In this document: positions 12,474 to 61,664 of the stretch, piece after piece
Layout: every line of letters begins with the position of its first letter
How positions within the stretch are numbered: position 1 is the first letter of the stretch
NCBI GenBank assembly: GCA_026396275.1
Contig: JAPLXC010000002.1
Span: 10,618 to 74,617 of the forward strand
Origin: Candidatus Moraniibacteriota bacterium
GTDB taxonomy: Bacteria; Patescibacteriota; Minisyncoccia; Moranbacterales; JAPLXC01
Length of the DNA: 64,000 nucleotides
Reading direction: 5' to 3'
Made by a program: the position numbers and the translations under genes
Notes under the pieces: generated by a model
What the model saw: the letters and a program-made list of their open reading frames with translations, nothing else
What the model was told of the DNA's origin: nothing
Database searches by the model: none

Positions 12474-12532
12474 TGTCATGCTGAACTCGATTCAGCATCT
12501 AATTAGATTCCGGCTCGAAGGCCGGAATGACA
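12474..12532. repeat. TGTCA-tagged palindrome dimer (REP-like)
   Basis: TGTCATGCTGAACTCGATTCAGCATCT-AATT-AGATTCCGGCTCGAAGGCCGGAATGACA. Confidence 0.85.
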
Positions 12533-12537
12533 AATAC

Positions 12538-12828
12538 TTATCCAAGCAATGTTTCACTTAAATCTTTCCATTTGGGATTACTTTTATTGATTAAATCAAT
12601 TTTCCATTCACGTTTCCAATTTTTAAGCTGTTTTTCTCTGGTTAAGGCGCTTCTGACATCTTCAGTCTGCTCAAAATATACTAATTTTTTCAAATTGTAT
12701 CTTTTAGTAAAACCATCAACCAGTTTATTTTTATGCTCATAAATTCTTTTAGATAAATTACCAGTAACTCCGGTATAAATTACTGTATTAATTTTATTGG
12801 TCAAAATGTAAACACAATATTGTTTCAT
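12538..12828 (-). CDS. GIY-YIG nuclease (UPF0213/YhbQ-like)
   Basis: YCVYIL..IYTGVT.NL.KR.YEHK, FTKRY, REKQLK.W.R.WK..LI...NP.W.DL; likely start MKQY at 12828. Confidence 0.92.
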   Translation of the reverse strand: MKQYCVYILTNKINTVIYTGVTGNLSKRIYEHKNKLVDGFTKRYNLKKLVYFEQTEDVRSALTREKQLKNWKREWKIDLINKSNPKWKDLSETLLG

Positions 12829-12835
12829 AAAAATT

Positions 12836-12862
12836 AGATCCCGGGTCAAGCCCGGGATGACA
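12836..12862. repeat. TGTCA-tagged palindrome monomer
   Basis: AGATCCCGGGTCAAGCCCGGGATGACA immediately upstream of the GIY-YIG start. Confidence 0.85.
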
Positions 12863-12902: not shown

Positions 12903-15900
12903 TTATTCTTCCGTTACTCTCTCCACTTCCTCCAATGTCGTCTCGCCTTCCAAAACCTTAAGGATCCCGTCCTGCTGCATAGTGAGCATTCCGTTTTCAA
13001 TGGCTTTGTCGCGGATGTGGGTGGAAAGTTCGTTAGCATAAATCATTTCCTGGACGGCTTTGTCAATTACTAAGACCTCACTCACAGTGGTACGGCCTTT
13101 GTAGCCGATGCCGTTGCATTTGGCGCACCCTTTGGGCTTGTAAATGTAACTTCCGGGGGGAATTTTTACTCCCGCTTTGGGTGAAATTGACTTAATAATA
13201 TTTTTTATCTTTTCTTTTTCTTCCGCGGTGGGCTTAATTTTTTCCCGGCACTCACAAAGTTTTCGCACCAGCCGCTGCGCCATAAATCCATTGGCGGCGG
13301 TGGCTAAATCATCGGTTCTCACTCCCATATTGAGAAGGCGGGGAATAGCGCCGGGCGCGTCATTGGTATGCAAAGTTGATAAAACCAAATGTCCAGTGAG
13401 CGCCGATTGAACAGCGATGCCGGCTGTTTCCTCATCGCGGATTTCACCAATCATCATAATGTCGGGGTTTTGGCGAAGAAGCGAGCGCAGGGCCGTGGGA
13501 AAAGTGTATCCTTCTTTGTCACTAACCTGTGTTTGTAAAATCCCCGTCAGCTGGTATTCAATCGGATCCTCCACGGTGATTACTTTAACTTCGGGTTTAT
13601 TGAGCACCCGCAGCAAACTGTAAAGCGTCGTTGTTTTTCCGGATCCGGTGGGACCGGTATTGAGAAAAAATCCATTGGGCTTTTTGATTTCATGAAGGAT
13701 TTTATCCAGATTTTGTTTTCTGATCCCCAGTTTATCAACATCCAGCGCCACCGCTCCCCGATTGAGAAGGCGCATCACGACTGTTTCTCCGTAGCCGCCT
13801 AAAATTATGGAAACGCGCACGTCCACTTTTATTTCAGTTATATTTTTAAACGGCCGGTCTATGGCTATGGAAAAACGGCTGTCTTTTACTCCTTGGCGAA
13901 GTTCAGCTTTAAGCCCGGAAAGTATTTTTATCTCTCCTAAAAATGTCGGGTATTCATTGAGGGGAATCCGCCCGATGGTTTGCAAAATCCCGTCAATGCG
14001 AAGGCGCACCAAGACCTCTTTCTCTTCCGGCTCGATATGAATATCGCCGGCGGAAAGCAAAAGCGCCGCCGCGATAACGTAGCGCAGAGCGTCTTTTTGA
14101 TTAGCGCCTTTCAAAAACTCGGCGAATTTTTCGAAGGAGGATGTATTTTTAGAAACCTTTTCCAAATCTTCTTGAGGTATTTCGATCGCCCGGGAAAGCG
14201 ACTGCTCCATTAATTTTTCATAAATCTCTTCAAGGAATTCGGTTTGCCCCGTCACCCGCCATACCTCTTCCAGTGAAGTGATTCCCTCAATGGCTTTCAT
14301 GATCCCATCTTGCGCCATAGTTATCATGCCTTCTTCCAAAGCGGCTTGAGTTATTTCTCCTTCGCTGGCCATGTTTAAAATAAGTTTTTCGATTGATTCG
14401 CTCATGGTGAGAACCTCGAAAACTCCGATTCTCCCCCGATATCCCAGATTATGGCAACGGGGGCAACCTTTTGGCCGATATAATTGAAGGATATCTTTGG
14501 GGATTTCCATTTTTGACTTCGGGGAGATTATCGCCAGAATCTTTTTGATTGAGTTGGCTGTTTCCTTGGCGGGCTGATAGACCTCCCGGCAGTGAGGACA
14601 AATTTTTCGCACCAGGCGCTGGGCGATAAGAGCGCTCACCGCTGGAGCAATAAGGTTGGGTTTGACTCCCAATTCTATCAGGCGCGGAACAGCGCCAGCC
14701 GCGCTGTTGGTGTGAATCGTGGAAAGCACCAGATGCCCAGTTAGTGCGGCGTTAAGGGCAATGTCGGCCGTTTCTTCGTCGCGGATCTCGCCAACCAGAA
14801 TCACGTCCGGATCCTGTCGCACTATCGCCCGCAATCCCTTTTCGAAAGTGTACCCCCGGCTCTTGGACACCTGCGTCTGGGAGATTCCTTTTATTTCATA
14901 TTCCACCGGGTCTTCAATAGTTATTATTTTCACTCCCGGTACATTGATCCGGTTAAGAACGGCGTAAAGCGTTGTGGTTTTCCCGGATCCGGTGGGGCCG
15001 GTGTTGAGAATCATCCCATGGGGCTTTTCTGTCTGTTTTTGCACTTGCTCATAAGCTAGTCCCCGCAATCCCAGTTCCTCAACTCTCAAGAGGACATCGG
15101 CTTGATTGAGAAGACGCATCACGATGCTCTCTCCGCGGTTTCCGGGAATGATGCTGACGCGGATATTGATTAGCCCGTTTTCCAGATTGACATTGAAGTG
15201 CCCGTCCTGGGCAATATCACGGATGTTGAGTTTCATTCCTCCCATCATTTTCACCCGCGATATGATGAAGCGGTAAATATCCAGAGGCAGATATCCGACA
15301 TCCTGCAGAACTCCGTCCAGGCGATAGCGCAGACGCACTTCTTCTTCCTGCGGCTCAAAATGAATGTCGCTGGCTTTCATCTTCACCGCCCCGGCCATAA
15401 TGGTAGTGATAATCTGGGTGGTGGGAATTTCCCGGATCCTTTTTTTGAGTTCCAGCAGATCCTTGAATTCCCTTTCAAATTCTTCAAGGTCTTTTCCGCT
15501 AAGAGACAGGCGGAGAGCGTCCAGATTTTCCAAAAGCGGTGTCTCTTTATACTTATTCAGGGCTTTGCTAAGCGAAGAAAGCGAAACGACATAAAGGCGG
15601 ATGTTCCAACCATTTTCTTGCTGAAGTTTTTTGACGTAATCCAGTGTTTCACGGCTTCCGGGATTGGTCAGCGCCAGCCGGATGTTTTTCCCAGCTTTCT
15701 GAAAGACGGCCACTTGAAAACGGCGCGCCTCCTCTTCGGGAAGAGAGCGAAGCTCATCGCCGCTCAAAGGAAAGAGATTGAGATCAACGTAAAAAAGATT
15801 GTGTTTTTTGGCCAGCGCCGCGGCTTGTTCTTCTTCCGATTCCTTACGCATTCGCCGCAGGACTTGAGACGCCCTGATATCTTTTTCTTTATCAGCCGGC

Positions 15901-15926
15901 AGTGTTTTGCGGAAAACTTTAACCAT
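12903..15926 (-). CDS. Tandem double GspE/PilB-family ATPase
   Basis: Two complete modules, each with DIH.EP, R.R.DG.L, GPTGSGKTTT, EDP.EY, RQ.PD, GEIRD, TGHLVLST and Zn-binding cysteines. Confidence 0.93.
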   Translation of the reverse strand: MVKVFRKTLPADKEKDIRASQVLRRMRKESEEEQAAALAKKHNLFYVDLNLFPLSGDELRSLPEEEARRFQVAVFQKAGKNIRLALTNPGSRETLDYVKKLQQENGWNIRLYVVSLSSLSKALNKYKETPLLENLDALRLSLSGKDLEEFEREFKDLLELKKRIREIPTTQIITTIMAGAVKMKASDIHFEPQEEEVRLRYRLDGVLQDVGYLPLDIYRFIISRVKMMGGMKLNIRDIAQDGHFNVNLENGLINIRVSIIPGNRGESIVMRLLNQADVLLRVEELGLRGLAYEQVQKQTEKPHGMILNTGPTGSGKTTTLYAVLNRINVPGVKIITIEDPVEYEIKGISQTQVSKSRGYTFEKGLRAIVRQDPDVILVGEIRDEETADIALNAALTGHLVLSTIHTNSAAGAVPRLIELGVKPNLIAPAVSALIAQRLVRKICPHCREVYQPAKETANSIKKILAIISPKSKMEIPKDILQLYRPKGCPRCHNLGYRGRIGVFEVLTMSESIEKLILNMASEGEITQAALEEGMITMAQDGIMKAIEGITSLEEVWRVTGQTEFLEEIYEKLMEQSLSRAIEIPQEDLEKVSKNTSSFEKFAEFLKGANQKDALRYVIAAALLLSAGDIHIEPEEKEVLVRLRIDGILQTIGRIPLNEYPTFLGEIKILSGLKAELRQGVKDSRFSIAIDRPFKNITEIKVDVRVSIILGGYGETVVMRLLNRGAVALDVDKLGIRKQNLDKILHEIKKPNGFFLNTGPTGSGKTTTLYSLLRVLNKPEVKVITVEDPIEYQLTGILQTQVSDKEGYTFPTALRSLLRQNPDIMMIGEIRDEETAGIAVQSALTGHLVLSTLHTNDAPGAIPRLLNMGVRTDDLATAANGFMAQRLVRKLCECREKIKPTAEEKEKIKNIIKSISPKAGVKIPPGSYIYKPKGCAKCNGIGYKGRTTVSEVLVIDKAVQEMIYANELSTHIRDKAIENGMLTMQQDGILKVLEGETTLEEVERVTEE

Positions 15927-16032
15927 AGAGTTACGACTATTGTACCGCATTTTACACTGGCGAGCAAAAATAAAAAGTCAGAATATATTCTGGCTTTCTT
16001 TAATTTCTTTTTCCGAAGGCAGTTAAAAAAAT

Positions 16033-17838: not shown

Positions 17839-18318
17839 ATGAAATCTTATATCACCAACAGCTCCGCGGAAACCAAAAAACTGGGCGAATTACTCGCCCG
17901 CGAGCTTTACGGCGGGGAAATAATTTGTCTTTCCGGTGAACTGGGTTCCGGCAAGACCACATTTGCGCAAGGGCTTCTCAAGGGACTAAAAATAAAAGGA
18001 CCGCACACGAGCCCTACGTTTGTGATAATAAAACAATATCACGTAGCACGTAACACTAAACACATAACAAATAAGAAATCAGAGTTGTTACGTGATATGT
18101 GCTATGTGTTATGTGACATCTACCATATCGACGCCTATCGTGTTACTGCTAAAGATATCTTAAATCTTGGTTGGGGGGAAATTATAAAAGATAAAAGTAA
18201 TATAATAATCGTAGAATGGGCCGACCGGATAAGAAAAATAATTCCCAAAGGGGCCACTCGGATTAAGTTTGAGTGGGTAAGTGAAAATAAAAGAAAAATT
18301 ACCCTCATGTCATCCTGA
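17839..18318 (+). CDS. tsaE: tRNA threonylcarbamoyladenosine biosynthesis ATPase TsaE, with an internal repeat-derived insertion
   Basis: L.GELGSGKTTF, SPTF, YHIDAYR, VEWA. Confidence 0.95.
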   Translation: MKSYITNSSAETKKLGELLARELYGGEIICLSGELGSGKTTFAQGLLKGLKIKGPHTSPTFVIIKQYHVARNTKHITNKKSELLRDMCYVLCDIYHIDAYRVTAKDILNLGWGEIIKDKSNIIIVEWADRIRKIIPKGATRIKFEWVSENKRKITLMSS

Positions 18319-18334
18319 ATTCATTTCAGGATCT
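18308..18334. repeat. TGTCA-tagged palindrome monomer that supplies the tsaE stop codon
   Basis: TGTCATCCTGAATTCATTTCAGGATCT. Confidence 0.75.
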
Positions 18335-18489
18335 AATACCAACACATTAAATTACCAGTTGACTTTTTTAACCATGGCTGGAAATTTAAACCGGAATTTT
18401 TGGAAAATAAAAAAGACAGATGAATTACAAACTGCCTAAAATTTGGATTGGGGATGCTCGCGAAGATTCTCGCAAGCATTCCCGAAAAA

Positions 18490-33271: not shown

Positions 33272-33337
33272 TGTCATTCCCGCGAAAGCGGGAATCTAGA
33301 GAATTTTCTAGATTCCGGCTCGGAGGCCGGAATGACA
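33272..33337. repeat. TGTCA-tagged palindrome dimer
   Basis: TGTCATTCCCGCGAAAGCGGGAATCT...AGATTCCGGCTCGGAGGCCGGAATGACA. Confidence 0.85.
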
Positions 33338-34143: not shown

Positions 34144-35496
34144 ATGGTTTATAAACTGCTTTTATTGTTCTGCCTCTATCTTCCCTTTCAAATCGCCTTA
34201 AATCCCAGCGAAGGAATTGACCTTGCTTCAGTAAGGGTAATAATCCCAATCCTGGCTTTATTATGGATTATTTCAGGTCTCAAAAACCGGCGGATTTTTA
34301 TTCCAGCGAAAATACAGACGGTTTTAATCATATTTTTTTTGTTCATAGCTGGCCTTTCACTATTTTGGGCAGATAATCAGGATTGGGGATTCCGGAAACT
34401 TTTGTTCTTGCTTTCAATCTTTCCGGTTTATTTTGTAGTAACCAGTATTATTCAATGTCATTCCCGCGAAAGCGGGAATCCAGAAATAAATGGCGTAGAT
34501 TCCGGCTCAGGGGCCGGAATGACATATCTGAATGTCAAAATTATCAAATTTCTCGTCTGGGGCGCGGGAGTTACATCTGTAATTGGCATAATTCAATTTC
34601 TTCTGCAATTTATGATTGGGCTGGATAATACTGCTGCAATTTGGAGAAATTACGTAACACCTCTGTTTTTAGGAAAATCATTTACTCATGCTGTTTTAGA
34701 ATATCCCAGCTGGCTGGTTAATGTTTCCGGGAAAGATTTTTTAAGGGCCTTTTCGACATTTCCCGATCCGCATATGCTTTCTTTTTATTTAGGGCTTTCG
34801 CTACCTTTGGCAATAGGATTATACTATGCTTTTAAAAAAAATATTTATTTATTTTTTTCTTTAATAATTTTAATCGCGAATCTCCTTACCTTTTCCCGTG
34901 GAGGGTATATCGGCTTGGCTGCCGGCCTGATTTTTATAGTTTTATATTTTGCTGTCAATAAAAAAATATCGGCTAAAAAACTTTTAGCTTCTCTTGTGCT
35001 GACACTGATTGTTTTGGCGTCTCTGGCGCTCACGCCAATCGGGAAGCGGGCCATTACCAGCTTCAGCACTGTTGAGGGCTCAAACAAGGTAAGATTTGAA
35101 AACTGGAATCAAGCGGTTAAAGTAATCAAAAATAATCCGCTGGGAGTGGGAATCGGCAATTATTCCTATGAAATTGAGCCCAGCGCTCCCTACCGGAAGC
35201 CGATTTACGCTCATAATTTATATCTTGACATCGCGGCGGAAACAGGAATTATCAATGCCATAATCTTTATATTGCTGGTCGTTTTTTCAATTAAAGATTT
35301 TGTGAAAAAATCAAAAGATAATATTTTATATCTAGGGAGTGCGGCGGGACTTGTGATTTTTTCAATCCATTCAGTTTTTGACACCGCGCTTTATTCAGTG
35401 CAAGTTCTGCCCCTGCTTTTAGTAATAATAGCTTTATCTGCTTCGAATAATTCCGGTAACACTATACTGCGGCCGCGGCATAGTGTTACCGGATGA
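34144..35496 (+). CDS. O-antigen ligase/Wzy_C family protein with an in-frame palindrome insertion
   Basis: Multi-TM; RA.STF.DP, LTFSRGG, R..NW, P.GVG.GNY, AHNLYL....E.G. Confidence 0.85.
   Translation: MVYKLLLLFCLYLPFQIALNPSEGIDLASVRVIIPILALLWIISGLKNRRIFIPAKIQTVLIIFFLFIAGLSLFWADNQDWGFRKLLFLLSIFPVYFVVTSIIQCHSRESGNPEINGVDSGSGAGMTYLNVKIIKFLVWGAGVTSVIGIIQFLLQFMIGLDNTAAIWRNYVTPLFLGKSFTHAVLEYPSWLVNVSGKDFLRAFSTFPDPHMLSFYLGLSLPLAIGLYYAFKKNIYLFFSLIILIANLLTFSRGGYIGLAAGLIFIVLYFAVNKKISAKKLLASLVLTLIVLASLALTPIGKRAITSFSTVEGSNKVRFENWNQAVKVIKNNPLGVGIGNYSYEIEPSAPYRKPIYAHNLYLDIAAETGIINAIIFILLVVFSIKDFVKKSKDNILYLGSAAGLVIFSIHSVFDTALYSVQVLPLLLVIIALSASNNSGNTILRPRHSVTG
34456..34524. repeat. TGTCA-tagged palindrome dimer inserted in frame (23 codons)
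   Basis: 69 bp encoding CHSRESGNPEINGVDSGSGAGMT. Confidence 0.9.
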
Positions 35497-43442: not shown

Positions 43443-43521
43443 AGCAAAAGATTGTTAGAAAATTAAAAGATGGAAAATTATTCCGTCTTGTTTTTATTGT
43501 ACTGGTAAACAGTGATATTGT

Positions 43522-43920
43522 CTAGATAAAAATGTTTTCAAGATGGCTTATTTTAAATGCTTTTCGGTTTTCTCCGATCCAAACGGAAAGAGCGTCAAAA
43601 TGATACGGCTTATCCCAGGCGTTTTCCTGCTTAATATAAAACAAGGCGATTTTGTTTAATTTGTGAAGCTTGGCTTTGGTAATATTTTCCTCGGGAAGCG
43701 ACTTATCGCCAGCGGAAAGCTCCCGCGTTTTTACTTCCACAAAAACGATCTCGCCGTTTTTTTTGGCAATAATATCAATTTCACCAAGTCTTCGCCCGAG
43801 AGGATTTTTAAAATTTTTTTCCAGAACCTTGTATCCTTTGTTTTTTAAATATTCTGCCGCAATTTTTTCGCCCAGCTGCCCGGTATTTAATTTCTCTTTT
43901 TTCCAGAATAAAAGCTTCAT
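43522..43920 (-). CDS. YraN/UPF0102 family protein
   Basis: G..GE..A..YL...GY..L..N, GEIDIIA, FVEVKTR, FD. Confidence 0.92.
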   Translation of the reverse strand: MKLLFWKKEKLNTGQLGEKIAAEYLKNKGYKVLEKNFKNPLGRRLGEIDIIAKKNGEIVFVEVKTRELSAGDKSLPEENITKAKLHKLNKIALFYIKQENAWDKPYHFDALSVWIGENRKAFKISHLENIFI

Positions 43921-48138: not shown

Positions 48139-48201
48139 TGTCATCCCGGACTTGATCCGGGATCTAATCTAATTAGATGCTGAATCAAGTTCAGCGTGAC
48201 A
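48139..48201. repeat. TGTCA-tagged palindrome dimer at the apex of the pnp leader hairpin
   Basis: TGTCATCCCGGACTTGATCCGGGATCT...AGATGCTGAATCAAGTTCAGCGTGACA. Confidence 0.85.
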
Positions 48202-61100: not shown

Positions 61101-61163
61101 GGGCAATTAGCTCAGTTGGTTACCCGCCCGAACGTACCGTCGTTCGGTACGGGCGGGGAGTGC
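61101..61163 (+). pseudogene. tRNA 5' part (acceptor + D arm) with a 35-bp hairpin inserted in the D loop
   Basis: GGGCAAT-TA-GCTC-AGTTGGTTA[35 bp]GAGT-GC; GGGCAAT pairs with ATTGCCC at 61657-61663. Confidence 0.75.
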
Positions 61164-61170
61164 TATATTT

Positions 61171-61431
61171 ATGTATACCGTATACGTGTTACAAGACAAA
61201 GAAGGAAAATTTTACAAAGGTGTTACAAATAATATTAAGCGCCGACTCTATGAACATAAACAGGGCAAAACAAAAACTACAAGAAAGATGGACGAGTTAA
61301 AAATTGTTTACACAGAAAAATACAAAAACTTTAAAGAAGTGAGAAGAAGAGAAGTTTATTTTAAAACTGCAGCAGGAAGAAGATTTTTAAAGAAAATATT
61401 AAATAAAAGGGCGACTAGCTCAGCTGGTTAG
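61171..61431 (+). CDS. GIY-YIG nuclease overlapping the 5' end of tRNA-Val
   Basis: YTVYVL....FYKG.T.N..RRL.EH..G....T, RE.YFK...GR. Confidence 0.88.
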   Translation: MYTVYVLQDKEGKFYKGVTNNIKRRLYEHKQGKTKTTRKMDELKIVYTEKYKNFKEVRRREVYFKTAAGRRFLKKILNKRATSSAG

Positions 61432-61482
61432 AGCGTCACATTGACATTGTGAAGGTCACAGGTTCAAGTCCTGTGTCGCCCA
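61409..61482 (+). tRNA. tRNA-Val(GAC), intact, CCA not encoded
   Basis: GGGCGAC/GTCGCCC acceptor, GCTC/GAGC D stem, TCACA-TTGACAT-TGTGA anticodon arm, ACAGG-TTCAAGT-CCTGT T arm. Confidence 0.95.
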
Positions 61483-61586
61483 CTTAGTTCAGTTGGTTAC
61501 CCGCCCGAACGTACCGTCGTTCGGTACGGGCGGGGAGCGCTTCGTTGACATCGAAGAGGTCTGCAGTTCGAGTCTGCACAAGCCCA
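61483..61586 (+). pseudogene. tRNA-Val(GAC)-like copy lacking its 5' acceptor strand, with the same 35-bp D-loop insertion
   Basis: CTTCG-TTGACAT-CGAAG anticodon arm, TGCAG-TTCGAGT-CTGCA T arm, 3' CAAGCCCA with no GGGCTTG partner. Confidence 0.8.
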
Positions 61587-61600
61587 CTTGTTTATATATA

Positions 61601-61664
61601 GGCAATTTTAGAGTGCCCCGATGTAACATCGGGGAGGTCGCTGGTTCGATTCCAGCATTGCCCA
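61601..61664 (+). pseudogene. tRNA 3' part / D-arm-deleted tRNA with an abnormal anticodon loop
   Basis: GGCAATT-TTAGAGTG-CCCCG-ATGTAACAT-CGGGG-AGGTC-GCTGG-TTCGATT-CCAGC-ATTGCCCA. Confidence 0.75.

Follow-up and report, generated by a model that had tools for sequence, protein, structure and literature searches.

An Ssn-type GIY-YIG nuclease gene bracketed by TGTC-tagged hairpins in a Moranbacterales genome, and its likely part in the spread of these repeats

Ssn Nucleases and Tagged Hairpin Repeats

The pairing of small GIY-YIG nucleases with DNA hairpins has been described in Neisseria, where the nucleases form the Ssn family, equivalent to cd10448 (Chenal et al., 2025, Nat Commun 16:2388; PMC11893778). 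According to the text of that paper, Ssn proteins are 94-aa GIY-YIG proteins that bind a tagged hairpin only as single-stranded DNA (ssDNA), cleaving it a few bases to the 5' side of the tag; hairpin binding and ssDNA-only cutting are reported for Neisseria and Wolbachia homologues, and the catalytic residues of SsnA are Y6, Y17 and E64 (PMC11893778). The hairpin motif occurs within 5 kb of 71% of homologues, and on both sides in 42% (PMC11893778). The sole in vivo role reported there is restriction of transforming DNA in N. meningitidis; the Discussion already likens Ssn to IS200/IS605 and REP-associated transposases, a mobile origin being only hypothesised (PMC11893778). Patescibacteria are unnamed in the main text and in 12 of the 14 supplementary files, and two Nanosynbacter genomes were entered in the survey without ssnA (PMC11893778).

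Di Nocera et al. (2013; PMC3733652) placed repeats of this kind in a class of CGTC-tagged REPs, whose families CGTC-1 and CGTC-2 take in Neisseria dRS3 and Rickettsia RPE-4/6. The text of that report assigns the class no dedicated transposase and describes no RAYT flanked by CGTC units, and the string "GIY" is absent from it; the text of the Ssn paper, in turn, mentions neither Di Nocera nor RAYT, REPtron or REPIN (PMC11893778). Joining the two reports is an inference of the present analysis. A third system, the REPtron or REPIN-RAYT system, is also described in that report (PMC3733652). As generally understood, it has one enzyme gene placed between inverted hairpins with tags, further dimers that lack the gene, repeat types specific to the enzyme and an ssDNA hairpin substrate, and these hallmarks are shared with the locus described here.

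Within the literature covered, outside which subscription papers lie, no paper showing Ssn-driven spread or naming Patescibacteria members was found. For cd10448 only Chenal et al. (2025) was retrieved, papers on Ssn since 2025 included none on mobility as judged by title, and searches for GIY-YIG together with REP/RAYT or palindrome/REPIN gave only unrelated or restriction-enzyme papers. The string "palindrom" is absent from the accessible text of Dunin-Horkawicz 2006 (PMC1564403). The gene/hairpin pairing, the biochemistry of homologues and the analogy with REPs and their transposases are already published.

The Nuclease Gene and Its Flanking Hairpins

The window, which is the whole stretch of 64,000 nucleotides that was analysed, belongs to the 810-kb genome (22 contigs) of a Candidatus Moraniibacteriota bacterium. 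Positions 12538-12828 on the reverse strand hold a single-domain GIY-YIG nuclease gene that is of the Ssn type by sequence. The 96-aa ORF starts at the ATG at 12828, and a longer alternative from a TTG at 12849 is also listed. Pfam GIY-YIG is the sole domain of the protein (E 1e-15), and its predicted structure is confident (pLDDT 92) and GIY-YIG-like; the nearest folds are those of UPF0213, Slx1 and UvrC, none reaching E 0.001. A PDB sequence search with the protein gave 0 matches and an NCBIfam search no model above its cut-off. Y7, Y18, R28, H32 and E65 are invariant across 12 aligned proteins. The gene for a two-domain type II/IV secretion (pilus) ATPase (12903-15950, reverse strand), a neighbour outside the unit, ends 75 bp before the nuclease start.

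Family membership was judged against an N. gonorrhoeae ORF that, with its 94 aa, its Y6/Y17/E64 and its NTS flanks, resembles N. meningitidis SsnA as described by Chenal et al. (2025) and was therefore used as the SsnA orthologue; a member was required to have a single GIY-YIG domain in fewer than 150 aa, and an SsnA alignment over more than 75% of the length at E below 1e-10. The 96-aa, one-domain protein aligns with this ORF over 88 of 94 residues at 49% identity (pairwise E 1e-32), and its Y7, Y18 and E65 keep the spacing of SsnA Y6, Y17 and E64. Among the eight small GIY-YIG genes of the genome, 12538-12828 alone passes E 1e-10 with the N. gonorrhoeae query, and it alone has TGTC units within 300 bp.

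The repeat unit consists of a TGTC tag, an 8-bp stem starting with AT, a 4-6-nt loop and a CTA or CCA tail. Upstream of the gene, a unit with an 8-bp stem and a 5-nt loop (12834-12862, reverse strand) has its tag facing away from the gene and its tail 5 bp from the ATG. Downstream lies a dimer, whose inner unit (12503-12532, reverse strand) begins 5 bp past the stop codon in the same orientation as the upstream unit, and whose outer unit (12474-12502, forward strand) carries the tag with which the complete unit (12474-12862) ends on that side. The first-pass annotation had placed tagged hairpins within 10 bp of the ORF, which agrees with these 5-bp gaps.

The gene-less members that it listed at 18308, 33272, 34456 and 48139 are all present. 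The first is a single unit (18308-18336, forward strand) that overlaps the TsaE stop codon. The others are dimers: one with tags outward between two glycosyltransferase genes (33272-33337; units 33272-33299, forward, and 33308-33337, reverse), one of 69 bp that forms part of the reading frame of a Wzy_C (O-antigen ligase-like) gene (34456-34524; units 34456-34483, forward, and 34495-34524, reverse), and one with tags outward upstream of the PNPase gene (48139-48201; units 48139-48167, forward, and about 48173-48201, reverse, the latter with one stem mismatch). Counting the ends of the nuclease gene separately, the window has four dimers and two singles, which reproduces the earlier tally of 10 units at six loci, mostly inverted dimers; the four stems quoted with that tally were also found in the window. 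A simple tag pattern matches the window eight times against 0.88 expected, a number reached by 0 of 100 shuffles, and folding z-scores for three repeat stretches range from -4.0 to -5.7. As side observations, the hairpin unit itself provides the TsaE stop codon (18308-18318), and a glycosyltransferase ORF takes its first ATG from another unit (33327-33337).

Compared with the published SRM, two window units, one of them the left unit of the 33272 dimer, match exactly (and match NTS with one mismatch); of the other eight, six have one to five mismatches and two have no match within five. The three gene-flanking units show one mismatch, three mismatches and no match within five, respectively, with the tag, stem and post-stem C present. 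The locus shares with Ssn/SsnA a single GIY-YIG protein of about 95 aa, the Tyr-Tyr-Glu spacing, hairpins on both sides and many gene-less copies, but the loops of 5-6 nt and the CTAA tail of its flanking units lie outside the published SRM pattern. With CGTC-tagged REPs the repeats share the YGTC tag, the AT-starting 8-bp stem, the 4- or 5-nt loop and the CCA-like tail, as well as the occurrence of heterodimers and of both intergenic and in-frame copies. They conform to the definition of that class (tag, 8-9-bp stem from AT, 4-5-nt loop, tail), which three window units exceed with 6-nt loops, and also to its dispersal mostly as inverted heterodimers near gene ends, with 26 dimers among 38 loci in the genome. 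As in a REPtron, the gene lies within inverted hairpins and gene-less dimers occur in the genome; unlike in a REPtron, the gene between the repeats encodes a GIY-YIG hydrolase and not an HUH/Y1 tyrosine transposase such as RAYT, which both cuts and rejoins DNA, and the tags differ (YGTC here, GTAG there).

Judged from these sequence features, the gene almost certainly belongs to the Ssn family, and 12474-12862 is read as an Ssn/SRM unit (NTS, dRS3-like, CGTC-class REP). In the first-pass annotation, it was described as a REPtron-like unit in which a GIY-YIG nuclease fills the role of RAYT. The association of gene and repeat stands, but the unit is not new, as Ssn/SRM pairs have been published (PMC11893778); spread by the nuclease is likely on the comparative grounds given below.

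Gene-Less Copies in the Genome

With a stem-checked pattern, the whole genome contains about 64 units at 38 loci, which comprise 26 tags-outward dimers and 12 singles, a few of which may be chance matches, and no other arrangement. All 26 two-unit loci have the layout of the gene-bearing unit minus the gene.

Twelve of the 38 loci fall within ORFs of at least 100 codons, and seven of these were aligned with orthologues, the Xer-like, RecG and MiaB-like cases being ambiguous. The dimer at 34456-34524 is absent from 10 of 11 orthologues and brings a net gain of about 21 residues; the eleventh orthologue has a different hairpin type in the same loop. An in-frame dimer of 86 bp in the LeuRS gene (C16:8834-8919) adds a net 24 residues relative to three of five orthologues, and one relative has another type there. 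Most orthologues thus aligned lack the in-frame copies. In these in-frame copies, the residues gained, as counted by eye from the alignments, amount to less than the tag-to-tag length; because the copies lie in loops of variable length, only the statement that net gain does not exceed tag-to-tag length can be used. Units in frame within variable loops are also seen in genes for AlaRS (C20:36613), an Xer-like recombinase (C14:127193-127250), RecG (C22:28330), a MiaB-like enzyme (C16:28261) and a glycosyltransferase (C16:49662-49740), and relatives have other hairpin types at the MiaB-like site.

No target-site duplication above chance was found at the 26 dimers, the mean shared end being 0.65 nt against 0.79 nt for shuffled pairs. 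In this the dimers differ from a MITE or other transposon with terminal inverted repeats. The data suggest that insertion replaces some target bases; as the orthologues are 50-75% identical and loop lengths vary, target loss is suggested rather than proven. The two cases in which a shared site has different repeat types could reflect a single old insertion that was remodelled in place.

Hairpins around Ssn Homologues and Their Abundance in the Phylum

The flanks of 110 homologue loci were analysed, namely the best 30 from a search of 301 genomes of the phylum and the best 80 of 376 from a wider contig collection. Under a strict perfect-stem rule, a unit lies within 150 bp of the gene in 66 of 105 fully flanked loci and on both sides in 42; many of the misses are broken-stem variants with the same tag and tail. 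With a looser pattern, which was composed after inspection of the flanks and scored with the window's own locus and one duplicate left out, a unit is found within 150 bp at 91 of 103 loci and on both sides at 67, of which 51 are tags-outward, compared with 12 of 736 control windows taken from these loci. The enrichment that the first-pass annotation had proposed to check is therefore borne out.

Its further suggestion, co-phylogeny of nuclease clade and repeat type, is supported as well. A crude repeat-type label changes 31 times on a tree of 109 proteins, whereas shuffled labels change 56.6 times on average and 0 of 200 shuffles are as low; the tree was made by a quick method from 90 columns, and 62 of its 106 forks are open. 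The window protein falls in a 15-member group (support 80) in which all repeats have 8-bp stems and 5-6-nt loops and the hosts span at least four phyla. Repeat type thus clusters by nuclease clade across host phyla.

Repeat abundance was compared across 299 genomes of the phylum, the own genome and one unpublished genome being left out. Of the 85 Ssn-positive genomes (median 33 repeats), 53 have at least 20, against 11 of the 214 Ssn-negative genomes (median 3), where Ssn-negative means not found with one query in genomes that are possibly incomplete and, when related, not independent, and includes nine genomes with only weak matches. When the same genomes are divided by Y1 transposase (PF01797), the counts are 36 of 138 positive and 28 of 161 negative (medians 5 and 4). 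Within families that hold both Ssn states, repeats are higher in the Ssn-positive members in 25, lower in one and tied in one; within those that hold both Y1 states, they are higher in 11 and lower in nine. The exceptions are 11 repeat-rich Ssn-negative genomes and five of the 85 Ssn-positive genomes with fewer than five repeats. Repeat abundance thus tracks the Ssn nuclease and not Y1/RAYT-type transposases.

These comparisons bear directly on the idea that a RAYT or other Y1 HUH transposase spreads the repeats and that the GIY-YIG gene is an ordinary gene that gathered them. The genome does have two Y1_Tnp genes, and repeat-rich genomes are slightly more frequent among Ssn-negative genomes if these are Y1-positive (8 of 93) than if they are Y1-negative (3 of 121). 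However, each of the two Y1 genes has its own, different flanking repeats, a pattern match anywhere in the locus occurs at only 4 of 30 Y1 transposase loci, abundance does not track Y1, and the text of Di Nocera et al. (2013; PMC3733652) likewise reports no RAYT flanked by CGTC units. A Y1 transposase was rejected as the spreader on its specific flanks and the unrelated abundance, and this explanation is regarded as very improbable; abundance following RAYT/TnpA, an outcome that the first-pass annotation had named as refuting its reading, is not what the genomes show. The two Y1_Tnp (RAYT-like) genes, of about 220 aa, lie at C19:3261-3926 and on C7 near 68358-68603, each between short repeats of its own (GAGGACCGTCCTCGA-like and GGAGGTTCAACCTCC-like) that are unrelated to the TGTC units.

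The hairpin dimers might instead be landing pads, having spread without the gene, beside which a homing-like gene cuts and into whose spacer it is copied. The gene does occupy the position of the spacer of gene-less dimers, and some repeat-rich genomes in which no Ssn gene was found exist. Such a gene would be expected in many copies, though, whereas here there is one gene per 26 dimers and genomes with matches have one to five, and the scarcity of repeats where the gene is missing would be left unexplained. This possibility is considered improbable.

As repeats are abundant where the nuclease is present, the Ssn nuclease likely drives their spread. The correlation would be expected equally from a mobiliser and from a domesticated nuclease that exerts selection for its own targets. 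In the domesticated case, the nuclease would only trim incoming or exposed ssDNA at hairpins in a form of restriction; the hairpins would owe their spread to host recombination or to some unrelated enzyme, and would be kept as cut marks. Besides the restriction role reported in N. meningitidis, the only in vivo function given for the family in the text of Chenal et al. (PMC11893778), this agrees with the ComEC-type gene in the genome, the position of the nuclease behind a pilus-type ATPase, the presence of one Ssn gene for about 64 units of several stem types, and the natural competence reported for Saccharibacteria in the text of PMC10187176. By itself, however, it leaves unexplained why targets stand only a few bases away on either side of the gene in many phyla, why repeat type tracks clade and why close homologues occupy six sites (see below). 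It is held to be unlikely, though it is the main alternative; restriction and mobilisation by the nuclease are compatible, and both may hold.

Genomic Sites and Possible Movement

The 10 closest genes (73-100% identity) occupy six sites among the loci compared. Four are at one site, two of them flipped, and one shares the site of the window; the flipped orientation could reflect an inversion across the inverted repeats. Of 19 loci of relatives with the orthologous pilus ATPase, only one has an Ssn gene behind it (four of the 19 have fewer than 700 bases there), which speaks against the domesticated reading, and that gene is 65% identical and has hairpins of another type with 4-nt loops.

Among contigs of four sequencing runs, with fragmentary cover, no joint that skips the unit was found. 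In one contig of run X4, the end of a hairpin is connected to the start of a hairpin through 13 letters that are unlike the flanks of this locus, and this contig was read as a repeat cluster of another organism. Among 40 relatives, the nearest of which belong only to the same order, no empty site at the nucleotide level was found. A phage collection gave no match at E 1e-15, and the 30 matching records of a plasmid collection, many of them megabase replicons, gave no sign of carriage on mobile DNA. One of the records filed as plasmids, the 2.17-Mb Neisseria gonorrhoeae record NZ_CP119140.1, resembles a chromosome. Records titled Bdellovibrionales hold close homologues whose neighbours are the same as at Moranbacteria-like loci, and their labels are possibly misassigned.

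Other GIY-YIG Genes of the Genome

The first-pass annotation also assigned the same architecture, with a different palindrome family, to a second GIY-YIG gene in the window (61171-61431, forward strand). A palindrome does stand on each side of this gene, but the element (61102-61586, forward strand) is separate from the Ssn unit and of a different type, being embedded in tRNA sequences. In order, it consists of a tRNA 5' piece that carries a 35-bp palindrome (61123-61157), the gene, an intact tRNA-Val(GAC) (61409-61483), in whose D-loop the gene has its stop codon, and another tRNA-Val-like copy whose D-loop holds the palindrome again (61500-61534). Each palindrome sits within the D-loop of a broken tRNA copy, both are on one strand, and the genome has no third copy. 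A shared architecture was rejected on the tRNA embedding, the same-strand palindromes and their two genomic copies. The protein shows 35% identity to the 96-aa protein over 62 residues and falls outside Ssn as defined above, with 29 residues aligned to SsnA pairwise and E 0.008 in the genome search. After the two tRNA-Val copies, a third, degenerate tRNA-like sequence is seen at 61600-61664 (Rfam 23 bits, below the gathering score).

A tRNA gene lies within 250 bp of five of the seven non-Ssn GIY-YIG genes of the genome. Five such genes (61102-61586, C5:20625-20938, C10:2137-2447, C8:19884-20197 and C3:7497-7820) end in or at an intact tRNA (Val, Pro, Trp, Gln or Glu), mostly behind a tRNA 5' piece bearing a GC-rich hairpin. 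A GIY-YIG gene on C20 near 43489-43698 has neither a tRNA nor a TGTC unit nearby and carries the short inverted repeat CCCCCACCACTTTTA at both ends. A literature search for tRNA-embedded GIY-YIG genes in the candidate phyla radiation returned none, and this class is possibly more novel than the Ssn unit.

A Proposed Nick-and-Repair Model and Its Implications

The reading preferred here, and judged fairly probable, is that the Ssn gene is bracketed by its own hairpins and that cuts in ssDNA by the tags, together with host repair, copy units to new sites. By homology, the enzyme is predicted to cut ssDNA roughly 4 nt to the 5' side of a tag, a distance counted from the NTS75 oligonucleotide and the 20-nt product of Chenal et al. 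(2025). The outermost cuts of a tags-outward unit would then fall just beyond the element, on opposite strands. GIY-YIG enzymes are hydrolytic nucleases, which do not form the covalent tyrosine-DNA intermediate of HUH enzymes. The nuclease could thus begin but not complete transposition, and the host would have to do the joining. This would occur by recombination or microhomology repair, often at the cost of target bases. Copying in either way would leave no duplication and might remove target bases, which matches the data on the dimers and in-frame copies. Host repair would thereby copy the gene-bearing unit and gene-less hairpin pairs into new AT-rich sites, the gene-less dimers being non-autonomous copies served by one gene. 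Both the activity of the 96-aa protein and the role of its cut as the start of spread are inferred from homologues and comparative data. Trimming of incoming transforming DNA, as in Neisseria, is plausible as a side effect, given the ComEC-type gene and the pilus ATPases found in this genome.

The locus would be another Ssn/SRM pair, in a lineage that the main text and most supplementary files of the published survey (PMC11893778) did not name, and its hairpin subtype outside the published pattern is a candidate for a new ssDNA cleavage specificity. As abundance follows Ssn and not Y1, type follows clade and target duplications are absent, the nick-and-repair model is directly testable. The wider value of the locus is comparative support for the open idea that Ssn drives the spread of CGTC-class REPs. 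In its broadest form, which is put at about an even chance, Ssn proteins would be the missing dedicated propagators of the whole CGTC/TGTC REP class (dRS3, RPE-4/6 and SRM), forming a minimal selfish element without a transposase, in which a 95-residue hydrolase nicks ssDNA next to its hairpins and host repair pastes a unit or dimer over a few target bases, even in tolerant loops of essential genes.
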